Shown here: positions 21,408 to 38,091 of the stretch, piece after piece | Layout: each line of letters opens with the position of its first letter | How positions within the stretch are numbered: position 1 is the first letter of the stretch | DNA from: Candidatus Thalassarchaeaceae archaeon | GTDB taxonomy: Archaea; Thermoplasmatota; Poseidoniia; MGIII; CG-Epi1 | Direction of reading: 5' to 3' | Length of the DNA: 41,532 nt | Assembly (NCBI GenBank): GCA_963577905.1 | Contig: CAUYZR010000003.1 | Coordinates: 1-41,532 of the forward strand | Translations under genes and position numbers: made by a program | Notes under the pieces: generated by a model | Databases searched by the model: none | Told to the model about the DNA's origin: nothing | Seen by the model: only the letters and a program-made list of their open reading frames with translations

Positions 21408-22154
21408 TTAGAGGTTATCGAGGAAGTCCTTTTCAGTGAAGTGTAATTTAGAGGGAATCACTAGGCTGTGTGGTTCTTTTCCTAGGTCTAATTTGGCCAG
21501 AACCTTTAATTTTCCGTACCATAATCTTTGGTCTTCTCTTCCTACTCTGGCGGCCGCTGCAACTTTTATTTCTCCAGATAGTCCGGTCTCGATGATCTGT
21601 TCTGCAGCCTGAGCAGCAGTCATGTAAATTGGTTCAGTTTCTGGCTGGTCGGCCTTGATATCCAATAATACCAAGGTATGATTCCCATTCTTCATATTGG
21701 TTTTGATCTTGTCGATAGGGCTGGTCGGTTTGTAGTTCCTCTCTGGAAGGACCAATGTTGCTACAGGGCCAAAGTTGTAATGTTGGAGTCCCAGAACACC
21801 CGCGACGGCGGTCAGGACAGATGCATTGTGTATTACATGATATTCAACCTTATTCTTCTTGCATTCTAACAATAAACTGACATGGGTTGTTGCAGATAGT
21901 GGATCTCCTACAACCAGTAATAAGATGTTCTTTTCTTTGGCTAATTCGATAATTTCTTTTGGTTCTTCAACTTGTCCTCTGGATAGATGTATGGGTTCCT
22001 TTTGTGACTTTAATTTTACCCAGTCCAGTGTTTCGGGATGAATTGGAGATGTATAGGTCTCATAGAATATGTGATCAGATAAACTAAGGGCTATCACTCC
22101 ATCCATATTTATGGAATTCGGTCCTCCTAGTCCTAGACCAATTATTGTCAGCAT
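21408..22154 (-). CDS. dph5: Diphthine synthase
   Basis: IIGLGL, YETYTS, VVGDPLSATTH, HNASV, GLQHYNFG, HTLVLLDI, PHSLVIP..LHFTE. Confidence 0.95.
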   Translation of the reverse strand: MLTIIGLGLGGPNSINMDGVIALSLSDHIFYETYTSPIHPETLDWVKLKSQKEPIHLSRGQVEEPKEIIELAKEKNILLLVVGDPLSATTHVSLLLECKKNKVEYHVIHNASVLTAVAGVLGLQHYNFGPVATLVLPERNYKPTSPIDKIKTNMKNGNHTLVLLDIKADQPETEPIYMTAAQAAEQIIETGLSGEIKVAAAARVGREDQRLWYGKLKVLAKLDLGKEPHSLVIPSKLHFTEKDFLDNL

Positions 22155-22188
22155 GAAGTCTTATTTGAGCCTCTCTTAATTAGTTACT

Positions 22189-22605
22189 ATGGCTATATCA
22201 CAAGGTTCATTGGAGATACGTACAAATCCTAAATCTTTCTTGGATATTACCAGTCAGGTTCAGGATTTTGTAATTGAGTCTAAAATACTGAATGGTGTTT
22301 GTCATTTATTTATTAAGCATACAAGTGCAAGTTTAGTCATTCAAGAAAATTATGATCCTTCTGTTAGACAAGATTTTGAAACTATTTTTTCTAATTTAGC
22401 TCCTGAAGATTTTCCATACGCTCATAATATGGAGGGTAAGGATGACATGCCGGCTCATATCCGTTCAGCTCTAACTAGCACTTCTGAGGCTGTTCCGGTT
22501 ATGAATGGCAAACTTTCATTGGGAACTTGGCAGGGAATATATTTGTGGGAGCACAGAGACCAGATGCATAGCCGGAAGGTAATGGTTAGTATTGTAGGTG
22601 AGTAA
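22189..22605 (+). CDS. YjbQ/UPF0047 family protein
   Basis: DITSQV, HTSASLVIQEN.DPSV, DDMPAHIRS, LGTWQGIYLWEHR. Confidence 0.92.
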   Translation: MAISQGSLEIRTNPKSFLDITSQVQDFVIESKILNGVCHLFIKHTSASLVIQENYDPSVRQDFETIFSNLAPEDFPYAHNMEGKDDMPAHIRSALTSTSEAVPVMNGKLSLGTWQGIYLWEHRDQMHSRKVMVSIVGE

Positions 22606-23189
22606 TGGAATTTAATCAATACAAAGCAAAGGCTATGAAAAAATTAGAAGATGCTAAATCAGAAGGTTTAGTTGATAAGGGTGTAATAGGAGTTCTCGAT
22701 TCTTTCAATTCACACCCCGATATTTTTACTACATCTAGTTGTGCAGGTAGATTGCAACTCATTGTTTTACCAGACGTAGGGAGAAAAGATTCTGTTGAGT
22801 TAAGAAAAACTTGGCATAGACCAGTTAAGTTTGAAGAAGTCAAAGAAGTACTTGACAATTTAGATATTCCTCTAAACTCTATTGTTATTCTACAAGGGCA
22901 GTCCCCCATCTTCCATGTAGCTTGTAGGACAATGGAGTTAGCCCAGAAGTTCAGGGGAATAGTCCACAGTAAAGGCTGGAAATATTCTTCATTGATAACT
23001 GGTAATGAGGACAAATGGGTGGTTGAGATCCTTTCAGCGAATAGGATTGATAATCTGTTATTCCGTGATGGTGTCATTGAACCTCCAGATGATGAACGTC
23101 TAAAATTTATCATTGAGGAATCAAATAAGATTTTGATTAAAGCCCAATCACGACTAGAAGCTTTGGAGTATATTCCTTCAGGCTTATAA
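22605..23189 (+). CDS. taw3: tRNA wyosine-derivative methyltransferase Taw3/TYW3
   Basis: GLVDKGV, FTTSSCAGR, TWHRPV, PIFHVACR, GWKYSS, VVEILS. Confidence 0.9.
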   Translation: MEFNQYKAKAMKKLEDAKSEGLVDKGVIGVLDSFNSHPDIFTTSSCAGRLQLIVLPDVGRKDSVELRKTWHRPVKFEEVKEVLDNLDIPLNSIVILQGQSPIFHVACRTMELAQKFRGIVHSKGWKYSSLITGNEDKWVVEILSANRIDNLLFRDGVIEPPDDERLKFIIEESNKILIKAQSRLEALEYIPSGL

Positions 23190-23211
23190 TTAAATACAAT
23201 TCATTCAGTGG

Positions 23212-24243
23212 TTGATTGTGAAGGCGCTCTATTTTGAAGAACATGGAGAAAGAGAGGTATTACAATACGGAGATTTACCGGATATCCAAAACAAAGATAA
23301 TCATGTGTTGATCAAAGTAGAAGCTTGTGCTTTGAATCATTTGGATATATGGATCCGAAAGGGTTGGCCTAGCCTTAATTTGCAAATGCCCCATATTGGA
23401 GGTAGTGATGTTTCTGGAACTGTTGTAGTAGGTAATGGGAAATGGAAAGAAGGAGATAAGATTGTAGTAGATCCAGGTATTTCTACAAAGGAAGATTCGT
23501 GGACTGAAAAAGGCCTGGATAGTATGAGTCCTGGTTATCGTATTCTGGGCGAGCATATCTGTGGAGGATGTGCTGAATATGTTTGTGTACCTGTAGAGAA
23601 CGTTCACACGCGTCCAGAGGGCATGTCGGCTAGTCAGGCAGCCGCACCTCTTCTTGCAGGTTTAACGGCCTATAGAATGCTTGTAAATCGGGCTAATATA
23701 CAGAAAGGAGATAATGTATTGGTAATGGGCTCTGGCGGTGGCGTTAATTCATTATCTATTCAGATTGCCAGACACTTTGGGGCTGATGTTCATGTTGTTG
23801 CTGGTGGAGCTGAAAAGAAAGTTAAAGCAGAAGGCCTCGGTGCTTCTTTTGTTGTAGATTACAAGGCTAATCCCGATTGGCACAAGGAATTGCTTCCAGT
23901 TATTGGCAGAAAAGGCTATGATATTGTAGTTGATAATGTGGGTAAACCAACTTGGTCCCATTCTATCAAATTAGCGGGTATTGGTGGTCGTATTGTCACA
24001 GTAGGTAATACAAAAGGTCCAATCGCCGAAACAGATATTCGCTATATCTTCTCGAAACAATTGTCTATTCTGGGATCAACGATGGGTTCTCATTCAGATT
24101 TTGCTGAATTGCTGAAATTATTAGGTTCTGGTTCTATTAAGCCAGTTATAGACTCTGAGATTCCTCTTTCAAATGGAGCCAAAGGTCATCAAATATTAGA
24201 AGAAGGAACTATGTTTGGTAAAGTTGTGATTGTACCTGACTAG
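23212..24243 (+). CDS. Medium-chain dehydrogenase/reductase (ADH/quinone-reductase-like)
   Basis: ACALNHLDIW, PHIGGSDVSG, ILGEHICGGCAEY, VMGSGGGV, ILGSTMG, FGKVVI. Confidence 0.9.
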   Translation: MIVKALYFEEHGEREVLQYGDLPDIQNKDNHVLIKVEACALNHLDIWIRKGWPSLNLQMPHIGGSDVSGTVVVGNGKWKEGDKIVVDPGISTKEDSWTEKGLDSMSPGYRILGEHICGGCAEYVCVPVENVHTRPEGMSASQAAAPLLAGLTAYRMLVNRANIQKGDNVLVMGSGGGVNSLSIQIARHFGADVHVVAGGAEKKVKAEGLGASFVVDYKANPDWHKELLPVIGRKGYDIVVDNVGKPTWSHSIKLAGIGGRIVTVGNTKGPIAETDIRYIFSKQLSILGSTMGSHSDFAELLKLLGSGSIKPVIDSEIPLSNGAKGHQILEEGTMFGKVVIVPD

Positions 24244-24599
24244 GTGAATTGTTCAATTTTTTCAATTAATGAGGGTAAGCGTACTGGTTTAGTTTCATAT
24301 TCATCGCAACCACCATCTAGTGCTTCTTGTCTATGTTCAGCCATTGCATGTGCTGTTAATGCAATAATAGGAATATTTCCTGTTGTTGAATCTTCCTTTA
24401 TTTCTTTAGTGGCTTGTAGCCCATCTTTTACAGGAAGGCCCATGTCCATCAGAATTACGTCCGGCATTTCACTTTTAGCCATATCAATAGCTTCTTGGCC
24501 ATCCATTGCAAAAATAATATCATACCCTTTCTTCATCAATCTTCTACTCAGCATATCCTTATTCATTTCGTTATCTTCAACAAGTAAAATTTTGGTCAT
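24240..24599 (-). CDS. Single-domain response regulator (DivK-like receiver)
   Basis: ILLVEDN, PDVILMDMGLP (phospho-Asp), IPIIALTAHAM, GCDEYETKPV; start overlaps the kinase stop. Confidence 0.95.
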   Translation of the reverse strand: MTKILLVEDNEMNKDMLSRRLMKKGYDIIFAMDGQEAIDMAKSEMPDVILMDMGLPVKDGLQATKEIKEDSTTGNIPIIALTAHAMAEHRQEALDGGCDEYETKPVRLPSLIEKIEQFT

Positions 24600-26866
24600 T
24601 AGTTTTCCTCTTGTACTACTATGGGAATTGTTATTGAAAAAGTTGTTCCCTTTCCCTCTTTACTTTCAACTTCCATTCTTCCTCCCATTATTTCTGTCAT
24701 TTTCTTACTTATTGGAAGACCAAGGCCAGTCCCTCCATAATTCTTTGAAGTGGAAGATTCTGCCTGTGTGAATTCTTCGAATACATTACCTATTTGCTCA
24801 TCATTCATCCCAATTCCTGTGTCTGTGACATCAAATCTAATTTGATTCTTATTTTCAGACTTTATCTTTAGAGTAATTTTACCTTTGTTTGTAAATTTAG
24901 CGGCATTACTAAGCATATTGAATAATATTTGTCTAATTTTGGTCTGGTCATTTTTTAGTTTCATATTTTTAGTTTCATTGTTTATTATAAATTTATTTTT
25001 ATTTTTCTCAACTAATGGTTTGGCCGTTGCCTCTATTTGCTTCAATAAAGTATTTAGTTCAATATCTTCAATATATAAATCCATTTTTCCAGCTTCTATC
25101 TTTGAGAGGTCCAATATGTCGTTTATAAGTGTCAGAAGATGTTCACCCGAAGAATGGATTTTAGTTAAATCGTCAGAATACGTATCGAGTCCATCATCCT
25201 CAGCTTCTTCCATTAGCATTTCACTATAGCCAATTATGGCATTCAATGGTGTTCTTAGTTCATGGCTCATTTTTGCTAAGAAGTCAGATTTGGCCTGATT
25301 TGCAGTTTGGGCATTCTGCATTGCAACCTGTAAATCATCTTTTTGTTTTCTCATTATCTTATCTGATTCTTCTAGGCTGCCCATGAGAATATTATAGTGA
25401 TATCCTATCTGGCCAGCTTCAGTGAAAAGGTCTTCAGGGCCTCTAACAGAAAGGTCTCCCGTATCATTCTGGTATTGCATTATCTTTAGCAAATCTATTT
25501 GATCACTACTAGAATCGTGTTCAGCAATATTGAGTCCTATGTCTTCAGCCTCTTGACTAACTCTTAGGGGGCTGTAATTATTTATTACATTCAATAGGAT
25601 ATAACTTACGAAAAAAGTATAGAGTCCTACGGAAATAATTCCAATAAGTTGCGCAATGAACTGATTCACTCGTACATTTCCGGTGTACTCTGTCAGATTT
25701 TGATTTCCAATTAAATATTCTTCAGCGGCAAAGAATGGTAAAACTAATGTTCCAAAAATTCCTCCAGCAAGATGAACAGGTATAGCTCCAACGGGATCAT
25801 CTAATTCTAATCTTTCAAGTAAACGCGTTGCATATAATGCCACTAAACCTCCTCCTGCACCTATTATTACGGCACTCAAAGGGGTTACCCAGTTCGCACT
25901 AGCTGTTACAGCTACTAGGCCCGCTAGCAGTCCGTTAAGCAAGTCCCCCGCTGGAGCAGTAGTATTCTGAACACCCCAGAAAATAAGACAAACTACAATT
26001 CCTGCAGCTGCTGCCAAGAAGGTATTTAATAAAATTCCAGGCACAGCTTCATCAAGAACTAGATTGCTTCCTCCATTAAACCCATGCCATCCAAATCCTA
26101 ATAGAAGTACACCCAGAACCGATAAGGGAAGGTTGCTGGGTGCAAATTTCCTTGTCTTACCTTCAACAAATCTTCCAGTCCTAGGTCCTATTATCAAGAT
26201 TATTGCAAGTCCAATCCAGCCTCCTGTTGAGTGGACTATGGTAGATCCGGCAAAGTCAACGAATCCAGCGTCATATAACCAGCCTGTAGACCCATCCCCT
26301 CCAAACAGGTCATCACTATTGGCCCATGCCCAGTGGCCAACTACAGGATATAGAATAGTACCTACTATTGCAGTTATGACTAGATAACTGTTAAATTTCA
26401 GTCTCTCCGCTACAGCTCCCGAAATTATTGAGGCGGCAGTTGCACAAAACATAGATTGAAATATAAAAAAAGTCATTGCTTGACCTGATGTTGCAGTTCC
26501 ACTAGGATCAAAGAAGAAGTCATTGGAACCCATGAAACCAGATTTACTAATTCCAAACATAAATCCATATCCAATGGTCCAAAAACAGACTATAGAAATA
26601 CCAAAATCAGAAACATTTTTCAGTGCAACATTAATATTGTTTTTATTCCTGATTATTCCAGATTCAAGACACATAAATCCAGCTTGCATCATAAAGACTA
26701 GAATAGCACAAATAAGCATCCAGAGAAGGTCTATGTTCGAAGCATTATTATCTATTGTCTCATCAGCAGCCCTGACTGTGTTCAAAGTAGTTATCAGTAT
26801 AATAAAAGCCAATGAGAAAATTATTAATCTTTTAAAGGTCTGAACGAAATTTAGCATTGTATTCAT
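24599..26866 (-). CDS. Ammonium transporter (Amt) - HAMP-like linker - histidine kinase fusion
   Basis: Amt: LVFMMQAGF..LESG, FQSMF, SGAVAER, DFAGSTIVHSTGG, GWHGFNGGS, NGLLAGLVAVTA, DDPVGAIPVH. Kinase: FLAKMSHELRTPLNAIIG, LSNAAKFT, DTGIGM, GGTGLGL. Confidence 0.96.
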   Translation of the reverse strand: MNTMLNFVQTFKRLIIFSLAFIILITTLNTVRAADETIDNNASNIDLLWMLICAILVFMMQAGFMCLESGIIRNKNNINVALKNVSDFGISIVCFWTIGYGFMFGISKSGFMGSNDFFFDPSGTATSGQAMTFFIFQSMFCATAASIISGAVAERLKFNSYLVITAIVGTILYPVVGHWAWANSDDLFGGDGSTGWLYDAGFVDFAGSTIVHSTGGWIGLAIILIIGPRTGRFVEGKTRKFAPSNLPLSVLGVLLLGFGWHGFNGGSNLVLDEAVPGILLNTFLAAAAGIVVCLIFWGVQNTTAPAGDLLNGLLAGLVAVTASANWVTPLSAVIIGAGGGLVALYATRLLERLELDDPVGAIPVHLAGGIFGTLVLPFFAAEEYLIGNQNLTEYTGNVRVNQFIAQLIGIISVGLYTFFVSYILLNVINNYSPLRVSQEAEDIGLNIAEHDSSSDQIDLLKIMQYQNDTGDLSVRGPEDLFTEAGQIGYHYNILMGSLEESDKIMRKQKDDLQVAMQNAQTANQAKSDFLAKMSHELRTPLNAIIGYSEMLMEEAEDDGLDTYSDDLTKIHSSGEHLLTLINDILDLSKIEAGKMDLYIEDIELNTLLKQIEATAKPLVEKNKNKFIINNETKNMKLKNDQTKIRQILFNMLSNAAKFTNKGKITLKIKSENKNQIRFDVTDTGIGMNDEQIGNVFEEFTQAESSTSKNYGGTGLGLPISKKMTEIMGGRMEVESKEGKGTTFSITIPIVVQEEN

Positions 26867-26925
26867 CCTTATTCGATTCTGTATTTAAAAATATAACCTA
26901 AAATACTCCAACTAATTATGAAAGC

Positions 26926-27210
26926 ATGGATGATTTCGATGATGATGAGTGGGCCGAAATGCAGGAAATGTATATTAATTTTACATTTAAGGAATTAAAG
27001 AATCTAAAGAAGGATTTGAGGATTGAGAATATGGAAGCTTTACAAACATTTGGTCATAATACCAAAGGAAGTGGAGGAATGTACGGTTTTGATGAAATTA
27101 CTCGATTAGGTGCCGAAATCGAATCATTGGCCAAAGAATCAGAGTTAGATGGTATTGTAAAATTATTTCAAAACTTGGAAACGTTTCTAAATTCTAAGAT
27201 TGAACTGTAA
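26926..27210 (+). CDS. Stand-alone histidine phosphotransfer (HPt) protein
   Basis: 94 aa helical protein with GHNTKGSGGMYGFDEITRLGAEIE (HxxKGS motif). Confidence 0.88.
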   Translation: MDDFDDDEWAEMQEMYINFTFKELKNLKKDLRIENMEALQTFGHNTKGSGGMYGFDEITRLGAEIESLAKESELDGIVKLFQNLETFLNSKIEL

Positions 27211-27245
27211 GCTCAAGTTCTAATATAACTGTTTAATCGGCAATC

Positions 27246-28202
27246 GTGTCAGATTTAAATTTACCTAATATACTTGCTGTTGATGATGATTATGCTGTAC
27301 GTATGGGTCTGGATTTCATGTTTAAAAAATGGCCAGAATATAATTTGGTCTTAGCTGAAGATCCAAATGATGCCCTTGCTAAGTTAGATGAACGAGAATA
27401 TCTTATGATGTTCAGTGATATCCATATGCCAATTATGTCCGGACTTGAATTATTACAGATAATAAAAGATAAAAGACCAGATATGCCCGTTATTATGTTA
27501 ACTTCTGAGACTGATATACATAGTTCAATTACAGCTTTCCGTTATGGGGCAATGGATTATTTGTTGAAACCGATGACAACGTCTACAGTACGTGATGCAA
27601 TAGATAAGGCAGCACTCTATGTCGAGAAATTATCTAGCAAAACTCTTGGAGTAATAGACATGGAAGACTTCAAGAATTTGGCCGAGAATTTTACTCCAGA
27701 GAAAATGGGCCTTACCACATCAGGTTCTAAAAGTTCCGAATTCACTAAATTAGTAACCATGCTCCAGGAGAAATTGATTCATCCAGGTAAGATTGGTCGA
27801 ATCCATAATTTATTCTTATTGTCTAAATCAGGTATAGTTATTGCAAATTTATCTGCGAAAAGTGTTGAACAAACAGATGTTGAGATATTAGGTGGAATGT
27901 TTACAGCAGTAAAAGATTTTATGGAAGATGCAGTAAGCGCTAGTACTACTTCGTCTTTGAACGACATTCAATTCGGTAATTTTCACGTTAAATTTGCTTC
28001 GGGAGCCTTCTCTGAATTGGCAGTAGTGTATACTGGAGTTCTAAATCAAGAAGCAGAGGATGCGATAACTGATACACTTATAGCTTTTGAATTAGAGAAT
28101 ATGGACATTTTGGAAAACTGGGATGGAGATATGTCTAAATTTGGCACTTCGGTTCAACATTTAGAGAGTCTCTTTGCAGCGATTGACAAGGATAAAAGTT
28201 AA
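27246..28202 (+). CDS. Response regulator with a C-terminal longin/roadblock-like output domain
   Basis: Receiver: ILAVDDD, FSDIHMPIMSG, PVIMLTS, GAMDYLLKP. C-terminus: LFLLSKSGIVI..DVEILGGMFTAVKDFM..WDGD. The receiver call is firm; the output fold is inferred. Confidence 0.85.
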   Translation: MSDLNLPNILAVDDDYAVRMGLDFMFKKWPEYNLVLAEDPNDALAKLDEREYLMMFSDIHMPIMSGLELLQIIKDKRPDMPVIMLTSETDIHSSITAFRYGAMDYLLKPMTTSTVRDAIDKAALYVEKLSSKTLGVIDMEDFKNLAENFTPEKMGLTTSGSKSSEFTKLVTMLQEKLIHPGKIGRIHNLFLLSKSGIVIANLSAKSVEQTDVEILGGMFTAVKDFMEDAVSASTTSSLNDIQFGNFHVKFASGAFSELAVVYTGVLNQEAEDAITDTLIAFELENMDILENWDGDMSKFGTSVQHLESLFAAIDKDKS

Positions 28203-29044
28203 TTTTTTCTCAATATAGCAATGATATGGCTTGTACTAGGACCATAAAATTTCACTCTTTCAAATTTTTCTACAACAAAACCCTTTGTTTTCATCAAATC
28301 TGAGAATTTGGTTGGAATACTTCCCCAGTCGCTTCTACTTTTGAACCCCAACCAGTTATTTCGGTATGCTTCGTGAAAGATTACAATTCCTTTATCGTTA
28401 AGATTATCGTATGTATGTTCAAGAAAATCAATAGTATTTCCAATATATCCTAAATGTATGACATCAGCTTTCACATTCACATTTCTACAATCATCATTTA
28501 TAATTTCTATATTTTTAATATTATTATCTTCAACATTCATTGACAAATATTCAATTGATTTTGGATTCTTATCGATGGCCACTATCTTTGTTTGAGGATA
28601 CCCCTTTGCCATTTGTAGAGAGAAATACCCGATACCTGCAAAATAGTCGATGATTGTTTCAGGGTTATCAAATGTATAGAAATCATTGACTTTTCTAGGA
28701 CCTACCAGAGCCGATCTCCAACCAGTGTTACCTGGTGACCACATAATTTCGCTAAGATCTAATTTATAACTTATTCCATATTCAGTGATTACTGTTGTCG
28801 TTTCTTTGCCATATAAAATCTCAACTTTCCCAGGTTTTCTGAGTTCACCACTAATTCTACGTTTTTGTATAATTGTTTTAGCACCTAATTCTTCTGCATA
28901 AAATTTGGCGATTTTGTTTCTTTTATTTTTATCTATGTTTTTAAGATCAAGAATGATAATATCCCCTACTTTCTTCCACTTTTTGGGTAAGTTGTTGTGT
29001 ATCTCTGAACTTATCTTTAGCTTAATATTTTCAAGAGGATTCAT
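28199..29044 (-). CDS. taw2: Trm5/Taw2 (Met-10+) family SAM-dependent tRNA-modifying enzyme, probably Taw2
   Basis: LPKKWKKVGDIII, ISGELRKP, MWSPGN, DYFAGIGYF, DKNP, IHLGY, IFHE; taw3 lies in the same window. Confidence 0.75.
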   Translation of the reverse strand: MNPLENIKLKISSEIHNNLPKKWKKVGDIIILDLKNIDKNKRNKIAKFYAEELGAKTIIQKRRISGELRKPGKVEILYGKETTTVITEYGISYKLDLSEIMWSPGNTGWRSALVGPRKVNDFYTFDNPETIIDYFAGIGYFSLQMAKGYPQTKIVAIDKNPKSIEYLSMNVEDNNIKNIEIINDDCRNVNVKADVIHLGYIGNTIDFLEHTYDNLNDKGIVIFHEAYRNNWLGFKSRSDWGSIPTKFSDLMKTKGFVVEKFERVKFYGPSTSHIIAILRKN

Positions 29045-29904
29045 TATTCAGCTAATTTTCTTAGTAAGGCTATTTCAGGTTTCCACATTTCAGGGCCACC
29101 CGGTGTTTCAAGATATACTGCTAAATCTTTTAATCTTTTCTCCTGCATAAAGTTCTTGAAAGTTTCTTTACCTAATTTTCCCATTCCAATATTATCGTGC
29201 CTATCAACTCTTGATCCTAATTCACTTTTTGAATCGTTAAGATGAAGTGCTACCAAATGTTCCATACCAACTATATTCTCGAAATCGTCCCATGTTTGGC
29301 TAAAATTGTTTTTCCAATCATAACCAGAGGCCCATGCATGTTGTGTATCAATACAAACACCAACTCTCTTTTTGTCATCTATATGGTCAATAATATGTTT
29401 TATTTCTTCGAATTTTATCCCGACATTGGTTCCTTGTCCAGCAGCATTTTCGATTATTAATTTTGATTCATATCCTTTTGTTTTATCTAATGTTTTGTTC
29501 ATGTGATGAGCAATTCGTTCTAATGCATCATATCTTGTTTGTTTATCGTCCCTCATATCTTTTTTTGGATGGGTATGAGACCCCGGGTGGAAATTGAGAT
29601 AGGCAACACCAAGTGCTTCACATCTGTGATATTCTTCTAAGAATGCAACTTGAGCTCTTTTGCCTTTAGTTTCATCTGGACTTCCCATGTTTATCAAATA
29701 TGAATCATGTATCATAAGGGGGCCAAGATCGGTTTCAGATAATGGTTTTTTGAATCCTTCTATTTGTTCTTCAGTTAGTGGTTTTGCTATCCATTGTCTT
29801 TGATTTTTACTAAACATTTGAAATGTATCAGCTTCTATTTCCAAAGCCCAAGGGATTGCGTTCTGAAGTCCCCCTGCAACACTTACGTGAGCTCCTAGTC
29901 TCAT
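29044..29904 (-). CDS. nfo: Endonuclease IV
   Basis: LGAHVSVAGG, HDSYLIN, NFHPGS, ENAAGQG, CIDTQH, HLNDS, DRHDNIG, LETP. Confidence 0.96.
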   Translation of the reverse strand: MRLGAHVSVAGGLQNAIPWALEIEADTFQMFSKNQRQWIAKPLTEEQIEGFKKPLSETDLGPLMIHDSYLINMGSPDETKGKRAQVAFLEEYHRCEALGVAYLNFHPGSHTHPKKDMRDDKQTRYDALERIAHHMNKTLDKTKGYESKLIIENAAGQGTNVGIKFEEIKHIIDHIDDKKRVGVCIDTQHAWASGYDWKNNFSQTWDDFENIVGMEHLVALHLNDSKSELGSRVDRHDNIGMGKLGKETFKNFMQEKRLKDLAVYLETPGGPEMWKPEIALLRKLAE

Positions 29905-29954
29905 GGTTTTACTAATTCAAGGCTACCTTAATAATAACTATTCGATAAGAGTCT

Positions 29955-30752
29955 GTGAAATTTTCAGTAGTAGCTAATGCTCGCCATGCAGGAATCAAGA
30001 AAATACTGACTAAGGTAATTGGTTTCCTGGATGATTTTGAACTTGAGGAGGAGACTGCTAAAGTTGTAAATCTGAAAGGGACGCCTCTTAGTGAATTACG
30101 GGGCGACATGGTGATTTCTCTGGGAGGTGATGGCACTTTATTGTATATTTTATCAAAAGTGAACAAGCCTATCTTTGGAATTAACTGCGGAGGTGTTGGG
30201 TTTCTGGCTGAAATGGAGCATAGCGAAGATATTTTCACGGCAATTAAAAATTTGGAAAAAGGTGAGTTTCTAAATCAGAAATTACAGAGAATAGACACCT
30301 ACATCAATGAACATCATGTTGGCTCAGCCCTCAATGAAGTCGTATTGCATACCTCTCGTGTAGCTAAAATACAAGGATTCGAGATCCATATTGATGGCGT
30401 TCTAGCCGACAGTTTTAGAGGCGATGGCTTGATAATTTCAACACCTACAGGTTCTACAAGCTACGCAATGTCATTGGGTGCTCCAATCCTGTACCCAACT
30501 ATGGAAGCTCATATTATTGTTCCCATAGCTGCCTATAGGATCGGTGCCCGACCCTTGGTTGTTCCATCCAATTATGAGATAACAGCAAAGTTAACTGGCA
30601 ATCCCGAGGCAGTTATGGTATTAGATGGTCAAGAAGAGATATTGATTACAATCGATGATAATGTAAAGTTCAAAAAGGCATCCAAATCTGTTGAAGTAAT
30701 AAGATTCAAGGATAATTTCTTTGAGAGAGTGAGAAACAAATTGAGGTTGTAG
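29955..30752 (+). CDS. nadK: NAD kinase
   Basis: LGGDGTLL, GINCGGVGFL, ALNE, GDGLIISTPTGSTSYAMSLG. Confidence 0.95.
   Translation: MKFSVVANARHAGIKKILTKVIGFLDDFELEEETAKVVNLKGTPLSELRGDMVISLGGDGTLLYILSKVNKPIFGINCGGVGFLAEMEHSEDIFTAIKNLEKGEFLNQKLQRIDTYINEHHVGSALNEVVLHTSRVAKIQGFEIHIDGVLADSFRGDGLIISTPTGSTSYAMSLGAPILYPTMEAHIIVPIAAYRIGARPLVVPSNYEITAKLTGNPEAVMVLDGQEEILITIDDNVKFKKASKSVEVIRFKDNFFERVRNKLRL

Positions 30753-36621: not shown

Positions 36622-38091
<1,470 letters not shown>

Follow-up and report, generated by a model that had tools for sequence, protein, structure and literature searches.

Candidate ammonium-receptor histidine kinase with adjoining phosphorelay components in a Marine Group III archaeon

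Two ammonium receptors of the Amt type have been characterised, both of them bacterial and with different outputs. The output of Sd-Amt1 from Shewanella denitrificans (PDB 8qj3, 8qj4, 8qpf; Pflueger et al. 2024, PMC11152129) is a GGDEF cyclase, whereas Ks-Amt5 from 'Candidatus Kuenenia stuttgartiensis' (PDB 6eu6; Pflueger et al. 2018, PMC5764959) combines its Amt domain with a HisKA-type kinase. According to the available excerpts of these papers, to which all statements below on Sd-Amt1 and Ks-Amt5 refer, both proteins retain all Amt pore motifs, yet display charge displacement rather than translocation (PMC11152129), and both hold two NH4+ ions in a lateral N1/N2 pocket (PMC5764959, PMC11152129). 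The phosphorylation of Ks-Amt5 is raised by ammonium; the protein is reported to be without a HAMP linker, and phosphorelay partners are not described in the excerpt (PMC5764959). In the excerpted text of a 2025 paper, a SAR11 Amt-phosphatase fusion with a HAMP domain (Amt-GI5) is considered a likely sensor (PMC11796062). Here, a gene for a predicted Amt-histidine kinase fusion (Amt-HK) and its neighbours were analysed in a 41,532-nt stretch of DNA (referred to as the window) from a Candidatus Thalassarchaeaceae archaeon of Marine Group III (contig CAUYZR010000003.1). Judging from its sequence, Amt-HK is probably a receptor kinase for ammonium, of the same kind as Sd-Amt1 and Ks-Amt5, and heads a putative four-protein phosphorelay. 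It would unite the HAMP-type linker of Sd-Amt1 with the kinase output of Ks-Amt5.

Amt-type ammonium receptors are thus known, and such a receptor is apparently undescribed in archaea. In a full-text literature search, no description of an archaeal Amt-kinase fusion was found; the 2024 paper shows its archaeal architectures in a figure and a supplementary PDF, both of which were outside this search. The excerpted text of a 2018 census of archaeal two-component systems contains none of the terms 'Amt', 'ammonium' and 'marine group', and mentions Hpt domains only at the end of hybrid kinases from Methanomicrobia. The archaeal share of the N1/N2 cluster is given as 2.6% in the available part of the 2024 paper (PMC11152129).

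The gene and its parts are located as follows (window positions; residues of the 755-residue product).

24599-26866, minus strand: Amt-HK, predicted ammonium-receptor histidine kinase of 755 amino acids (listing of open reading frames (ORFs), Pfam, NCBIfam, 100% identical cluster P0001)
26765-26866, minus strand: N-terminal hydrophobic extension, residues 1-34, possibly signal-peptide-like (alignment and crude hydropathy scan)
25511-26725, minus strand: Amt-like sensor module, residues 48-452 (Pfam Ammonium_transp and alignments to Sd-Amt1 and Ks-Amt5)
25307-25510, minus strand: cytoplasmic linker, residues 453-520, with the HAMP-like motif GDLSVRGPEDLFTEAGQIGYHYNILM at residues 470-495
25088-25294, minus strand: HisKA/DHp domain, residues 525-593, with the phospho-acceptor H535 (Pfam and motif search)
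24620-24952, minus strand: HATPase_c domain, residues 639-749, with N, G1, F and G2 boxes (Pfam and motif search)

The composition of this ORF as Amt, HisKA and HATPase domains, proposed by the first-pass annotation, was borne out by the ORF listing, Pfam and NCBIfam. The Pfam families Ammonium_transp, HisKA and HATPase_c were matched with E-values of 4.9e-114, 1.7e-21 and 4.8e-30, respectively. Assignment to the Amt/Mep/Rh profile holds across the entire domain, with 381.6 bits for PF00909 (cut-off 23.2; profile positions 1-396 of 399) and 407.2 bits for the NCBIfam model TIGR00836 (amt; curated cut-off 343.3). The transducer (HisKA plus HATPase_c) is fused C-terminally to the Amt module within the same ORF and belongs to class I (HisKA), with all of the H, N, G1, F and G2 boxes found (SHELRTP at 534, LSNAAKF at 652, DTGIGM at 682, FEEFTQ at 696 and GGTGLGL at 711). 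The nearest NCBIfam kinase models are of hybrid types (LuxQ, TorS, BarA), none of which scored above its own cut-off. The database record of the protein (P0001) comprises 752 amino acids, as its start lies three codons downstream of that of the 755-residue ORF. The extension formed by residues 1-34 is missing from the aligned bacterial relatives.

The pore motifs quoted by the first-pass annotation were each located once by script, at consistent positions. The twin His residues lie in TIVHSTGG (residues 209-216, H212) and IPVHLAGG (362-369, H365), and the Phe gate in FQSMF (136-140, F136) and GFNGGS (262-267, F263), the latter including the vestibule Ser S267. The vestibule Trp is W179 in GHWAW (177-181), and the conserved Asp is D204 in DFAG (204-207). 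These motifs align with the same residues of Sd-Amt1 and Ks-Amt5 and are kept in 95-96 of the 96 clade representatives. The sequence GWHGFN (residues 259-264) in place of the usual GWFGFN proved to be real and specific to the clade: the position of H261 is occupied by His in 96 of 96 cluster representatives of the Marine Group III type, by Phe or Leu in the bacterial Amt-HK hybrids (12 of 12) and by Phe in the Amt-SpoIIE proteins (104 of 104). H261 stands two residues ahead of the gate residue F263, and helix geometry suggests that its side chain is directed away from the pore.

Among solved structures, Amt-HK was matched best by Sd-Amt1 (8qj3/8qpf; E = 3.6e-120, aligned residues 47-498), followed by Ks-Amt5 (6eu6; E = 3e-89), with AmtB and Af-Amt1 much weaker (1e-35 to 1e-48). 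The closest characterised relative is therefore Sd-Amt1 and not Ks-Amt5, which had initially been named as the counterpart. Residues were mapped on the alignments to both receptors, and their roles were taken from the excerpted 2024 text (PMC11152129). Six of the seven N1/N2 pocket residues are identical (Q61, E68, N84, D87, F88 and S149, equivalent to Q22, E29, N45, D48, F49 and S107 of Sd-Amt1), whereas the seventh is changed from Thr to Ser, with the hydroxyl preserved. The switch pair K83/Y161 corresponds to K44/Y119 of Sd-Amt1, the side path to the pocket (F64/E68) to F25/E29, and N311 to N269, which narrows the cytoplasmic exit. The receptor-site and switch residues, F64, N311, S146 and H261 do not vary among the 96 clade representatives, at identities down to 74%; the 12 bacterial Amt-HK hybrids carry Thr at the position of S146. 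Since the residues of the receptor site and of the exit constriction are kept, Amt-HK is most likely a detector and not an importer of ammonium, by analogy with the two characterised proteins, and 'sensor' was preferred to the term 'transceptor' used at first.

Sd-Amt1 and Amt-HK thus share the Amt sensor, the pocket, the Lys/Tyr switch, the exit Asn, Phe-25 and a homologous linker. They differ in output (a cyclase as against a HisKA/HATPase kinase), in host (bacterial as against archaeal) and in two residues, Thr-104 and F219 (GWFGFN) of Sd-Amt1 being replaced by Ser and His. Ks-Amt5 likewise consists of an Amt domain and a HisKA-type kinase and has the same pore motifs and N1/N2 ligands, but differs from Amt-HK in that the latter possesses a HAMP-like linker and is encoded in a relay cassette.

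The linker string was located by script at residues 470-498, and a short helix after GDLSVRGPEDLFTEAGQIGYHYNILM leads to the DHp domain. The alignment to Sd-Amt1 extends through this region; in the excerpted text its authors termed the linker of that protein HAMP from an AlphaFold model (PMC11152129). In BLAST alignments beginning at query residues 469-471, residues 469-498 coincided with the second (C-terminal) half of a Pfam HAMP domain in five of five bacterial kinases devoid of an Amt domain (L027, L029, L034, L073, L097). Moreover, the linker motif G470-D-L...G485...Y491-N492 is common to the archaeal clade, the bacterial Amt-HK hybrids and the Amt-SpoIIE proteins. Given the alignment to recognised HAMP halves, the shared motif and the match to the Sd-Amt1 linker, the linker appears related to HAMP, and 'HAMP-like' is a fair label.

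The bacterial hybrids of the type Amt-(PAS)-HisKA-HATPase-REC-REC (Kiloniellales L025, Pleurocapsa L047, Anaerolineae L066; P0109-P0120) have a collinear Amt domain, the same linker motif and a kinase of the same subfamily, and are 45-51% identical to Amt-HK over up to 94% of its length. In these hybrids, two receivers and often also a PAS domain are part of the polypeptide, whereas the archaeal protein has neither and uses a separate receiver. The nearest Amt domains outside the clade belong to the Amt-SpoIIE proteins (P0124-P0229), comparable to the SAR11 Amt-phosphatase fusion, which are likewise marine, share the linker motif and made up 104 of the 106 relatives among the matches listed, at 51-55% identity. 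They possess a PP2C/SpoIIE output, not a kinase, and a Leu at the position of N311 in 100 of 104 cases. The other two listed relatives (P0174, P0203; 535 and 546 amino acids) contained an Amt domain alone in Pfam, and the whole-protein search added Amt-(PAS)-HK-REC hybrids at 45-49% identity.

The initial account of the gene recognised the kinase fusion but overlooked that it lies in a cassette for a putative four-protein phosphorelay, the remaining parts of which are located as follows.

24240-24599, minus strand: REC119, single-domain receiver of 119 amino acids with E8, D9, D52, T82 and K104 (ORF listing, Pfam, motif search)
26867-26925, no strand assigned: divergent intergenic region of 59 bp with an AT-rich TTTAAAAATATAA element, possibly a shared TATA-like promoter (read by eye)
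26926-27210, plus strand: stand-alone Hpt protein of 94 amino acids with H44 in the invariant sequence FGHNxKGSGGMYGF (Pfam Hpt, E = 1.6e-8; alignment)
27246-28202, plus strand: REC-X, 318 amino acids, with a receiver domain (residues 9-119; D13, D14, D58, T86, K108) and a C-terminal longin/Roadblock-like domain (residues 185-310 approximately)

All four proteins possess the acceptor residue expected of a relay part (H535 of Amt-HK, D52 of REC119, H44 of Hpt in the context HxxKG, and D58 of REC-X). The start codon of REC119 overlaps the stop codon of Amt-HK. DivK was the best solved match of REC119, and stand-alone receivers (about 121 amino acids) encoded beside related bacterial kinases share 53-64% identity with it. 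In the 1.19-Mb assembly, all matches to HisKA (1 of 1), Hpt (1 of 1) and REC (2 of 2) fell inside the cassette, which is the sole two-component system of the assembled 68% of the genome.

The cassette is conserved in related genomes. Of 11 complete Amt-HK loci examined, 10 include REC119, Hpt and REC-X (the exception is L019, whose contig stops short of REC119), and the same three genes occur with a second kinase, HK2, alone in G021, G023 and G024. The cassette is flanked by genes for a diphthine-synthase-like protein, UPF0047, TYW3 and ADH on one side and for TYW2, endonuclease IV and NAD kinase on the other, and this archaeal neighbourhood recurred at 14 of 14 related loci whose flanks were examined; G028 differs. 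In G043, which represents another genus, the same cassette parts are present in a different order. In G036, a 97% complete genome of a sister genus (L108, G036:C66:13000-29000), ADH and NAD kinase lie about 1.8 kb apart, with neither a phosphorelay cassette nor TYW2 or endonuclease IV between them, so that this site is empty or rearranged.

Amt-HK is the only kinase of the cassette in this genome and in G013; in most other genomes the cassette contains one further kinase, and in G026 two. HK2 (441-448 amino acids; L014 6361-7689 (minus strand), L015-L017, L020-L022) has a kinase core 71-77% identical to that of Amt-HK. Its N-terminal 200 residues form a multi-pass membrane domain to which no Pfam family was matched and for which Protein Atlas gave a MASE-like lead (score 0.94-0.95; a lead only). 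Phosphorelays with several kinases feeding one His-Asp-His-Asp chain are familiar from Bacillus (KinA-E/Spo0F/Spo0B/Spo0A) and Vibrio (LuxN/LuxQ/LuxU/LuxO), which likewise have a stand-alone receiver and a stand-alone phosphotransferase. The present system differs from them in its archaeal host, its Hpt-type transferase and its terminal regulator, which is longin/Roadblock-like rather than DNA-binding or AAA+.

The C-terminal part of REC-X is shared by more than 1500 cluster representatives. When the whole REC-X model was submitted to Foldseek, only receiver domains were retrieved. The C-terminal part was then folded alone with 42 sequences, which yielded a model (pLDDT 79.5, pTM 0.73) with the order helix, two strands, helix, three strands, helix. 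In a Foldseek search of the PDB with this model, 44 of 44 among the matches listed were of the longin/Roadblock type (E = 1.2e-5 to 8e-4, TM 0.35-0.63), including AP sigma, TRAPP, Mon1-Ccz1, LAMTOR, MglB and Asgard Roadblock proteins. Two of 20 distant relatives showed a sub-threshold Robl_LC7 match at the aligned position (P0254, 20.9 bits; P0240, 19.6 bits; cut-off 23), and Protein Atlas gave scores of 0.75-0.85 for the C-terminus, as a lead only. In the model, the domain has the order of elements of a longin/Roadblock fold. Domains of this kind pair with one another and with small GTPases, which suggests that the output of REC-X may operate through protein contact.

The REC-X longin/Roadblock-like domain (window 27798-28175, residues 185-310) carries a WDGD motif. 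The same domain was also observed near the C-terminus of giant proteins with one transmembrane-like segment, one of which is encoded in this genome (ORF of at least 2603 amino acids, contig C48, 2-7813) and another next to the cassette in G024 (L021, 9052-14001). Distant relatives of the domain carry CARDB and DUF5915 domains.

The following mechanism is proposed. NH4+ would be admitted by the Amt-fold module via the Trp/Ser vestibule, the Phe gate and the twin-His pore to the lateral N1/N2 pocket without net transport, and the occupancy of the pocket would be passed on through the divergent HAMP-like linker to the class I histidine kinase, which would autophosphorylate on H535 in an ammonium-dependent manner. 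The phosphoryl group would most likely be transferred from H535 to D52 of the presumably co-transcribed REC119, then to H44 of Hpt and finally to D58 of REC-X, whose longin/Roadblock-like domain would act on a target by protein-protein contact and not by DNA binding. The kinase and REC119 would have been acquired from bacteria, and the kinase core would have been duplicated in the archaeal lineage onto a MASE-like membrane sensor, giving rise to HK2, with zero to two further kinases feeding the same relay.

Several points weigh against this interpretation. S146 stands at the position of the Thr that bridges both sites (T104 in Sd-Amt1, T109 in Ks-Amt5). The published signature QX6EX15NX2D[F/T]X54-60TX2[S/T] is matched literally at residues 61-146, but through T143; as the homologous Thr position is that of S146, this match is a coincidence of register, and the pocket was counted as six identical residues plus one conservative change. 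Plant AMT1 transporters fall into the same N1/N2 cluster in the available part of the 2024 paper (PMC11152129), so that the signature is compatible with transport. The residues plugging the pore of Ks-Amt5 (F27/Y30/F34) correspond to F64/L67/I71, of which only the first is kept, and with two of three plug residues replaced the pore of Amt-HK may be less obstructed than that of Ks-Amt5. The HAMP-like linker named in the initial reading stood as regards homology to the HAMP halves and the Sd-Amt1 linker, but Pfam HAMP (PF00672) did not match residues 440-530 or 423-560 at E <= 10, nor the whole protein at 0.01. Similarly, no Pfam family, including Robl_LC7 (PF03259), was matched by the C-terminal part of REC-X at E <= 10. 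That the kinase should depend on ammonium is an analogy drawn from Ks-Amt5, and the status of the cassette as sole two-component system applies to a genome that is 68% complete.

Alternatively, Amt-HK might be a transceptor whose Amt module carries NH4+/NH3 as the ammonium uptake route of the cell and signals as well. This is the most serious competitor, although we consider it rather improbable. The pore motifs are all intact and L67 and I71 are smaller than the plug residues of Ks-Amt5, but Sd-Amt1 and Ks-Amt5 keep the same motifs and show charge displacement only (PMC11152129), and the exit-narrowing Asn and the entire receptor pocket are invariant in the clade. Amt matches were found in 15 of the 45 genomes of the order, 13 of which have the fusion type only, a point in favour of the transceptor (of the other two, G043 possesses the fusion as well as a stand-alone Amt, and G038 nothing but a stand-alone Amt in fragments). 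Against an uptake role, 30 of the 45 genomes lack any Amt match, as do 282 of the 301 genomes sampled from the class; among the 19 with a match, the five outside the order have an Amt of stand-alone length or a short fragment. Moreover, a PII protein was found in none of the 45 genomes, and strong glutamine synthetase matches were confined to two (larger) genomes of the sister family; within the genus of Amt-HK, matches were weak and partial except for a contig-edge fragment in G029 (E = 4.5e-30). Glutamate dehydrogenase was present in 38 of the 45 genomes. The gene content thus does not make the lineage look dependent on Amt-mediated uptake, which favours a receptor role. That the Amt module should be a mere membrane anchor or oligomerisation scaffold for a kinase sensing another signal is very improbable: the paralogous HK2 does carry an unrelated membrane domain on the same core, but invariance of the pore and N1/N2 residues tested in 96 of 96 representatives at identities down to 74% would not be expected of an anchor.

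The position of REC119 within the relay was considered separately. As it is most like DivK, which acts by binding partners, and as the small receiver adjoins hybrid kinases that already carry receivers in the related bacterial clusters, it could serve as a sink for phosphate or as a DivK-like output in its own right, with Hpt and REC-X being fed otherwise. We regard this as unlikely, since the archaeal kinases lack a fused receiver, no other receiver that could pass phosphate to Hpt was found in the 68% complete genome, and REC119, Hpt and REC-X are found as a group, irrespective of the kinase, at every locus examined except one. A complex prediction for REC119 and Hpt scored 0.12 against a mark of 0.32, which is evidence neither for nor against their interaction.

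The Amt-HK gene is native to the Marine Group III archaeon. The same contig carries a complete archaeal 16S rRNA gene (window 36622-38091, minus strand); no 23S rRNA match was obtained anywhere in the 41.5-kb window, and the rRNA genes therefore appear unlinked. About 100 cluster representatives from marine metagenomes, nearly all of about 750 amino acids, are 74-100% identical to Amt-HK, and the named ones are assigned to 'Marine Group III euryarchaeote', 'Methanobacteriota archaeon' and once to 'Chloroflexi bacterium' (74% identical). Bacterial contamination, which had been put forward as a possible refutation, or a chimeric assembly could be invoked on the grounds of this 'Chloroflexi' record and of the bacterial nature of the nearest relatives outside the clade. 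It can be virtually dismissed in view of the 16S rRNA gene and of the archaeal neighbourhood conserved at 14 related loci; in addition, both borders of the cassette (ADH/REC119 and REC-X/TYW2) are spanned without differences by contigs from two other studies, and the base composition at third codon positions (GC3) of the gene equals that of its neighbours. In both trees described below, the 'Chloroflexi' record is paired with G043, a Marine Group III genome, and its label therefore probably results from an error in binning.

The raw GC content of the kinase half (32.9%) is lower than that of the Amt part (39.1%), as had been noticed by eye in the initial reading, but this is not evidence that the halves differ in origin: their GC3 is the same (Amt part 0.279, kinase part 0.271), and the difference in raw GC is due to amino-acid content. 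Over about 8 kb around the cassette (window 22189-29904, including TYW2, TYW3 and endonuclease IV), GC3 was 0.24-0.31. The genes with low GC3 (0.27-0.31) comprise the cassette and the flanking ADH, TYW3, UPF0047, TYW2 and endonuclease IV genes, which rank in the 2nd-8th percentile of 796 crude ORFs of the genome (a naive ORF set, in which short genes are compared with longer ones). As the flanking archaeal genes are equally low in GC3, composition was rejected as a sign of foreign origin.

A bacterial origin of the kinase and REC119, also anticipated by the first-pass annotation, is well supported by sequence comparison, both having only bacterial near relatives. A contig scan with kinase peptides returned 77 bacterial loci and no Marine Group III genomes, which the search set may leave out. 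Other kinase matches in the genomes of the order, outside the cassette family, were 22-41% identical to Amt-HK. Separate trees of the two parts, as originally suggested, were calculated by a quick method and answered the question in part. In the kinase tree (SH-aLRT support only), the 16 archaeal kinases (Amt-HK, HK2 and a 497-residue variant) formed one clade with 100% support and a long stem, nested within the radiation of bacterial hybrid kinases with an unresolved sister. They were not placed beside the kinases of bacterial Amt-HK proteins, which themselves do not form one group, so that the gene may have been transferred whole or may have arisen by fusion within the lineage. The Amt-domain tree gave three supported groups (archaeal proteins; Amt-SpoIIE proteins; bacterial Amt-HK-REC proteins with a stand-alone Marinibacterium Amt), whose order was unresolved, the sole outgroup (canonical Amt of G043) being on a branch of length 10. 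The third gene in the related bacterial clusters encodes a HisKA-REC-cyclase or a REC-SpoIIE protein.

An unfused counterpart was observed in Marinibacterium sp. (L033, 2839-8488), where a 121-residue receiver, a stand-alone Amt and a dCache-HAMP-PAS-HK-REC kinase are encoded in a row. The receiver is 64% identical to REC119, and the 417-residue Amt is 46% identical to the Amt part of Amt-HK.

The host belongs to an abundant, uncultured group of marine archaea, and the relay downstream of the receptor appears complete in a compact, conserved cassette. The system may thus be a tractable case in which to study the control of a dimeric kinase by a trimeric sensor, and might also reveal whether the N1/N2 pocket tolerates the change from Thr to Ser. 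It also appears to document the transfer of a signalling module from bacteria to archaea and its subsequent rewiring: the receiver is separate, an Hpt protein and a longin-like output are present, and the sensor domains have been swapped. Furthermore, it raises the ecological question of why protein-degrading archaea without PII or Amt uptake would perceive ammonium. As the order is without PII and mostly without Amt, and the family without a strong glutamine synthetase match, ammonium might be, for these heterotrophs with small genomes, a habitat cue (decaying particles, phycosphere) and not a nitrogen-assimilation signal; the sole two-component system might then control cell-surface behaviour via the receiver-longin/Roadblock regulator, through pairing with the tail domain of the giant surface protein. 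We put this forward as a speculation that is quite unlikely to hold. If true, the receptor would be the first for ammonium in archaea, and its output logic would be new to two-component signalling.

A weak hint of cassette expression was obtained from one metatranscriptome library (X14), in which 12 contigs fell on positions 22000-30000 of the window, 11 of them at >= 99% identity. The eight contigs listed individually lie within 24768-28067, and depth was also recorded at 24136-24669; uncovered flanks carry no weight as evidence. The X14 runs were retrieved with this very stretch, and such libraries can hold DNA; the contigs show neither strand nor level.

Two variants of the gene were encountered among related genomes. 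The Amt-HK ortholog at G009:C46:2651-4903 contains one in-frame TAA, which may reflect a sequencing error, variation between strains or decay to a pseudogene. G029 (C25, C28) and G033 (C40, C47) each contain two Amt-HK copies on different contigs, 79-84% identical to that of the window. In G029, both copies are found in the same flanking synteny, and the duplicates in the two genomes look like co-binned strains rather than paralogs.

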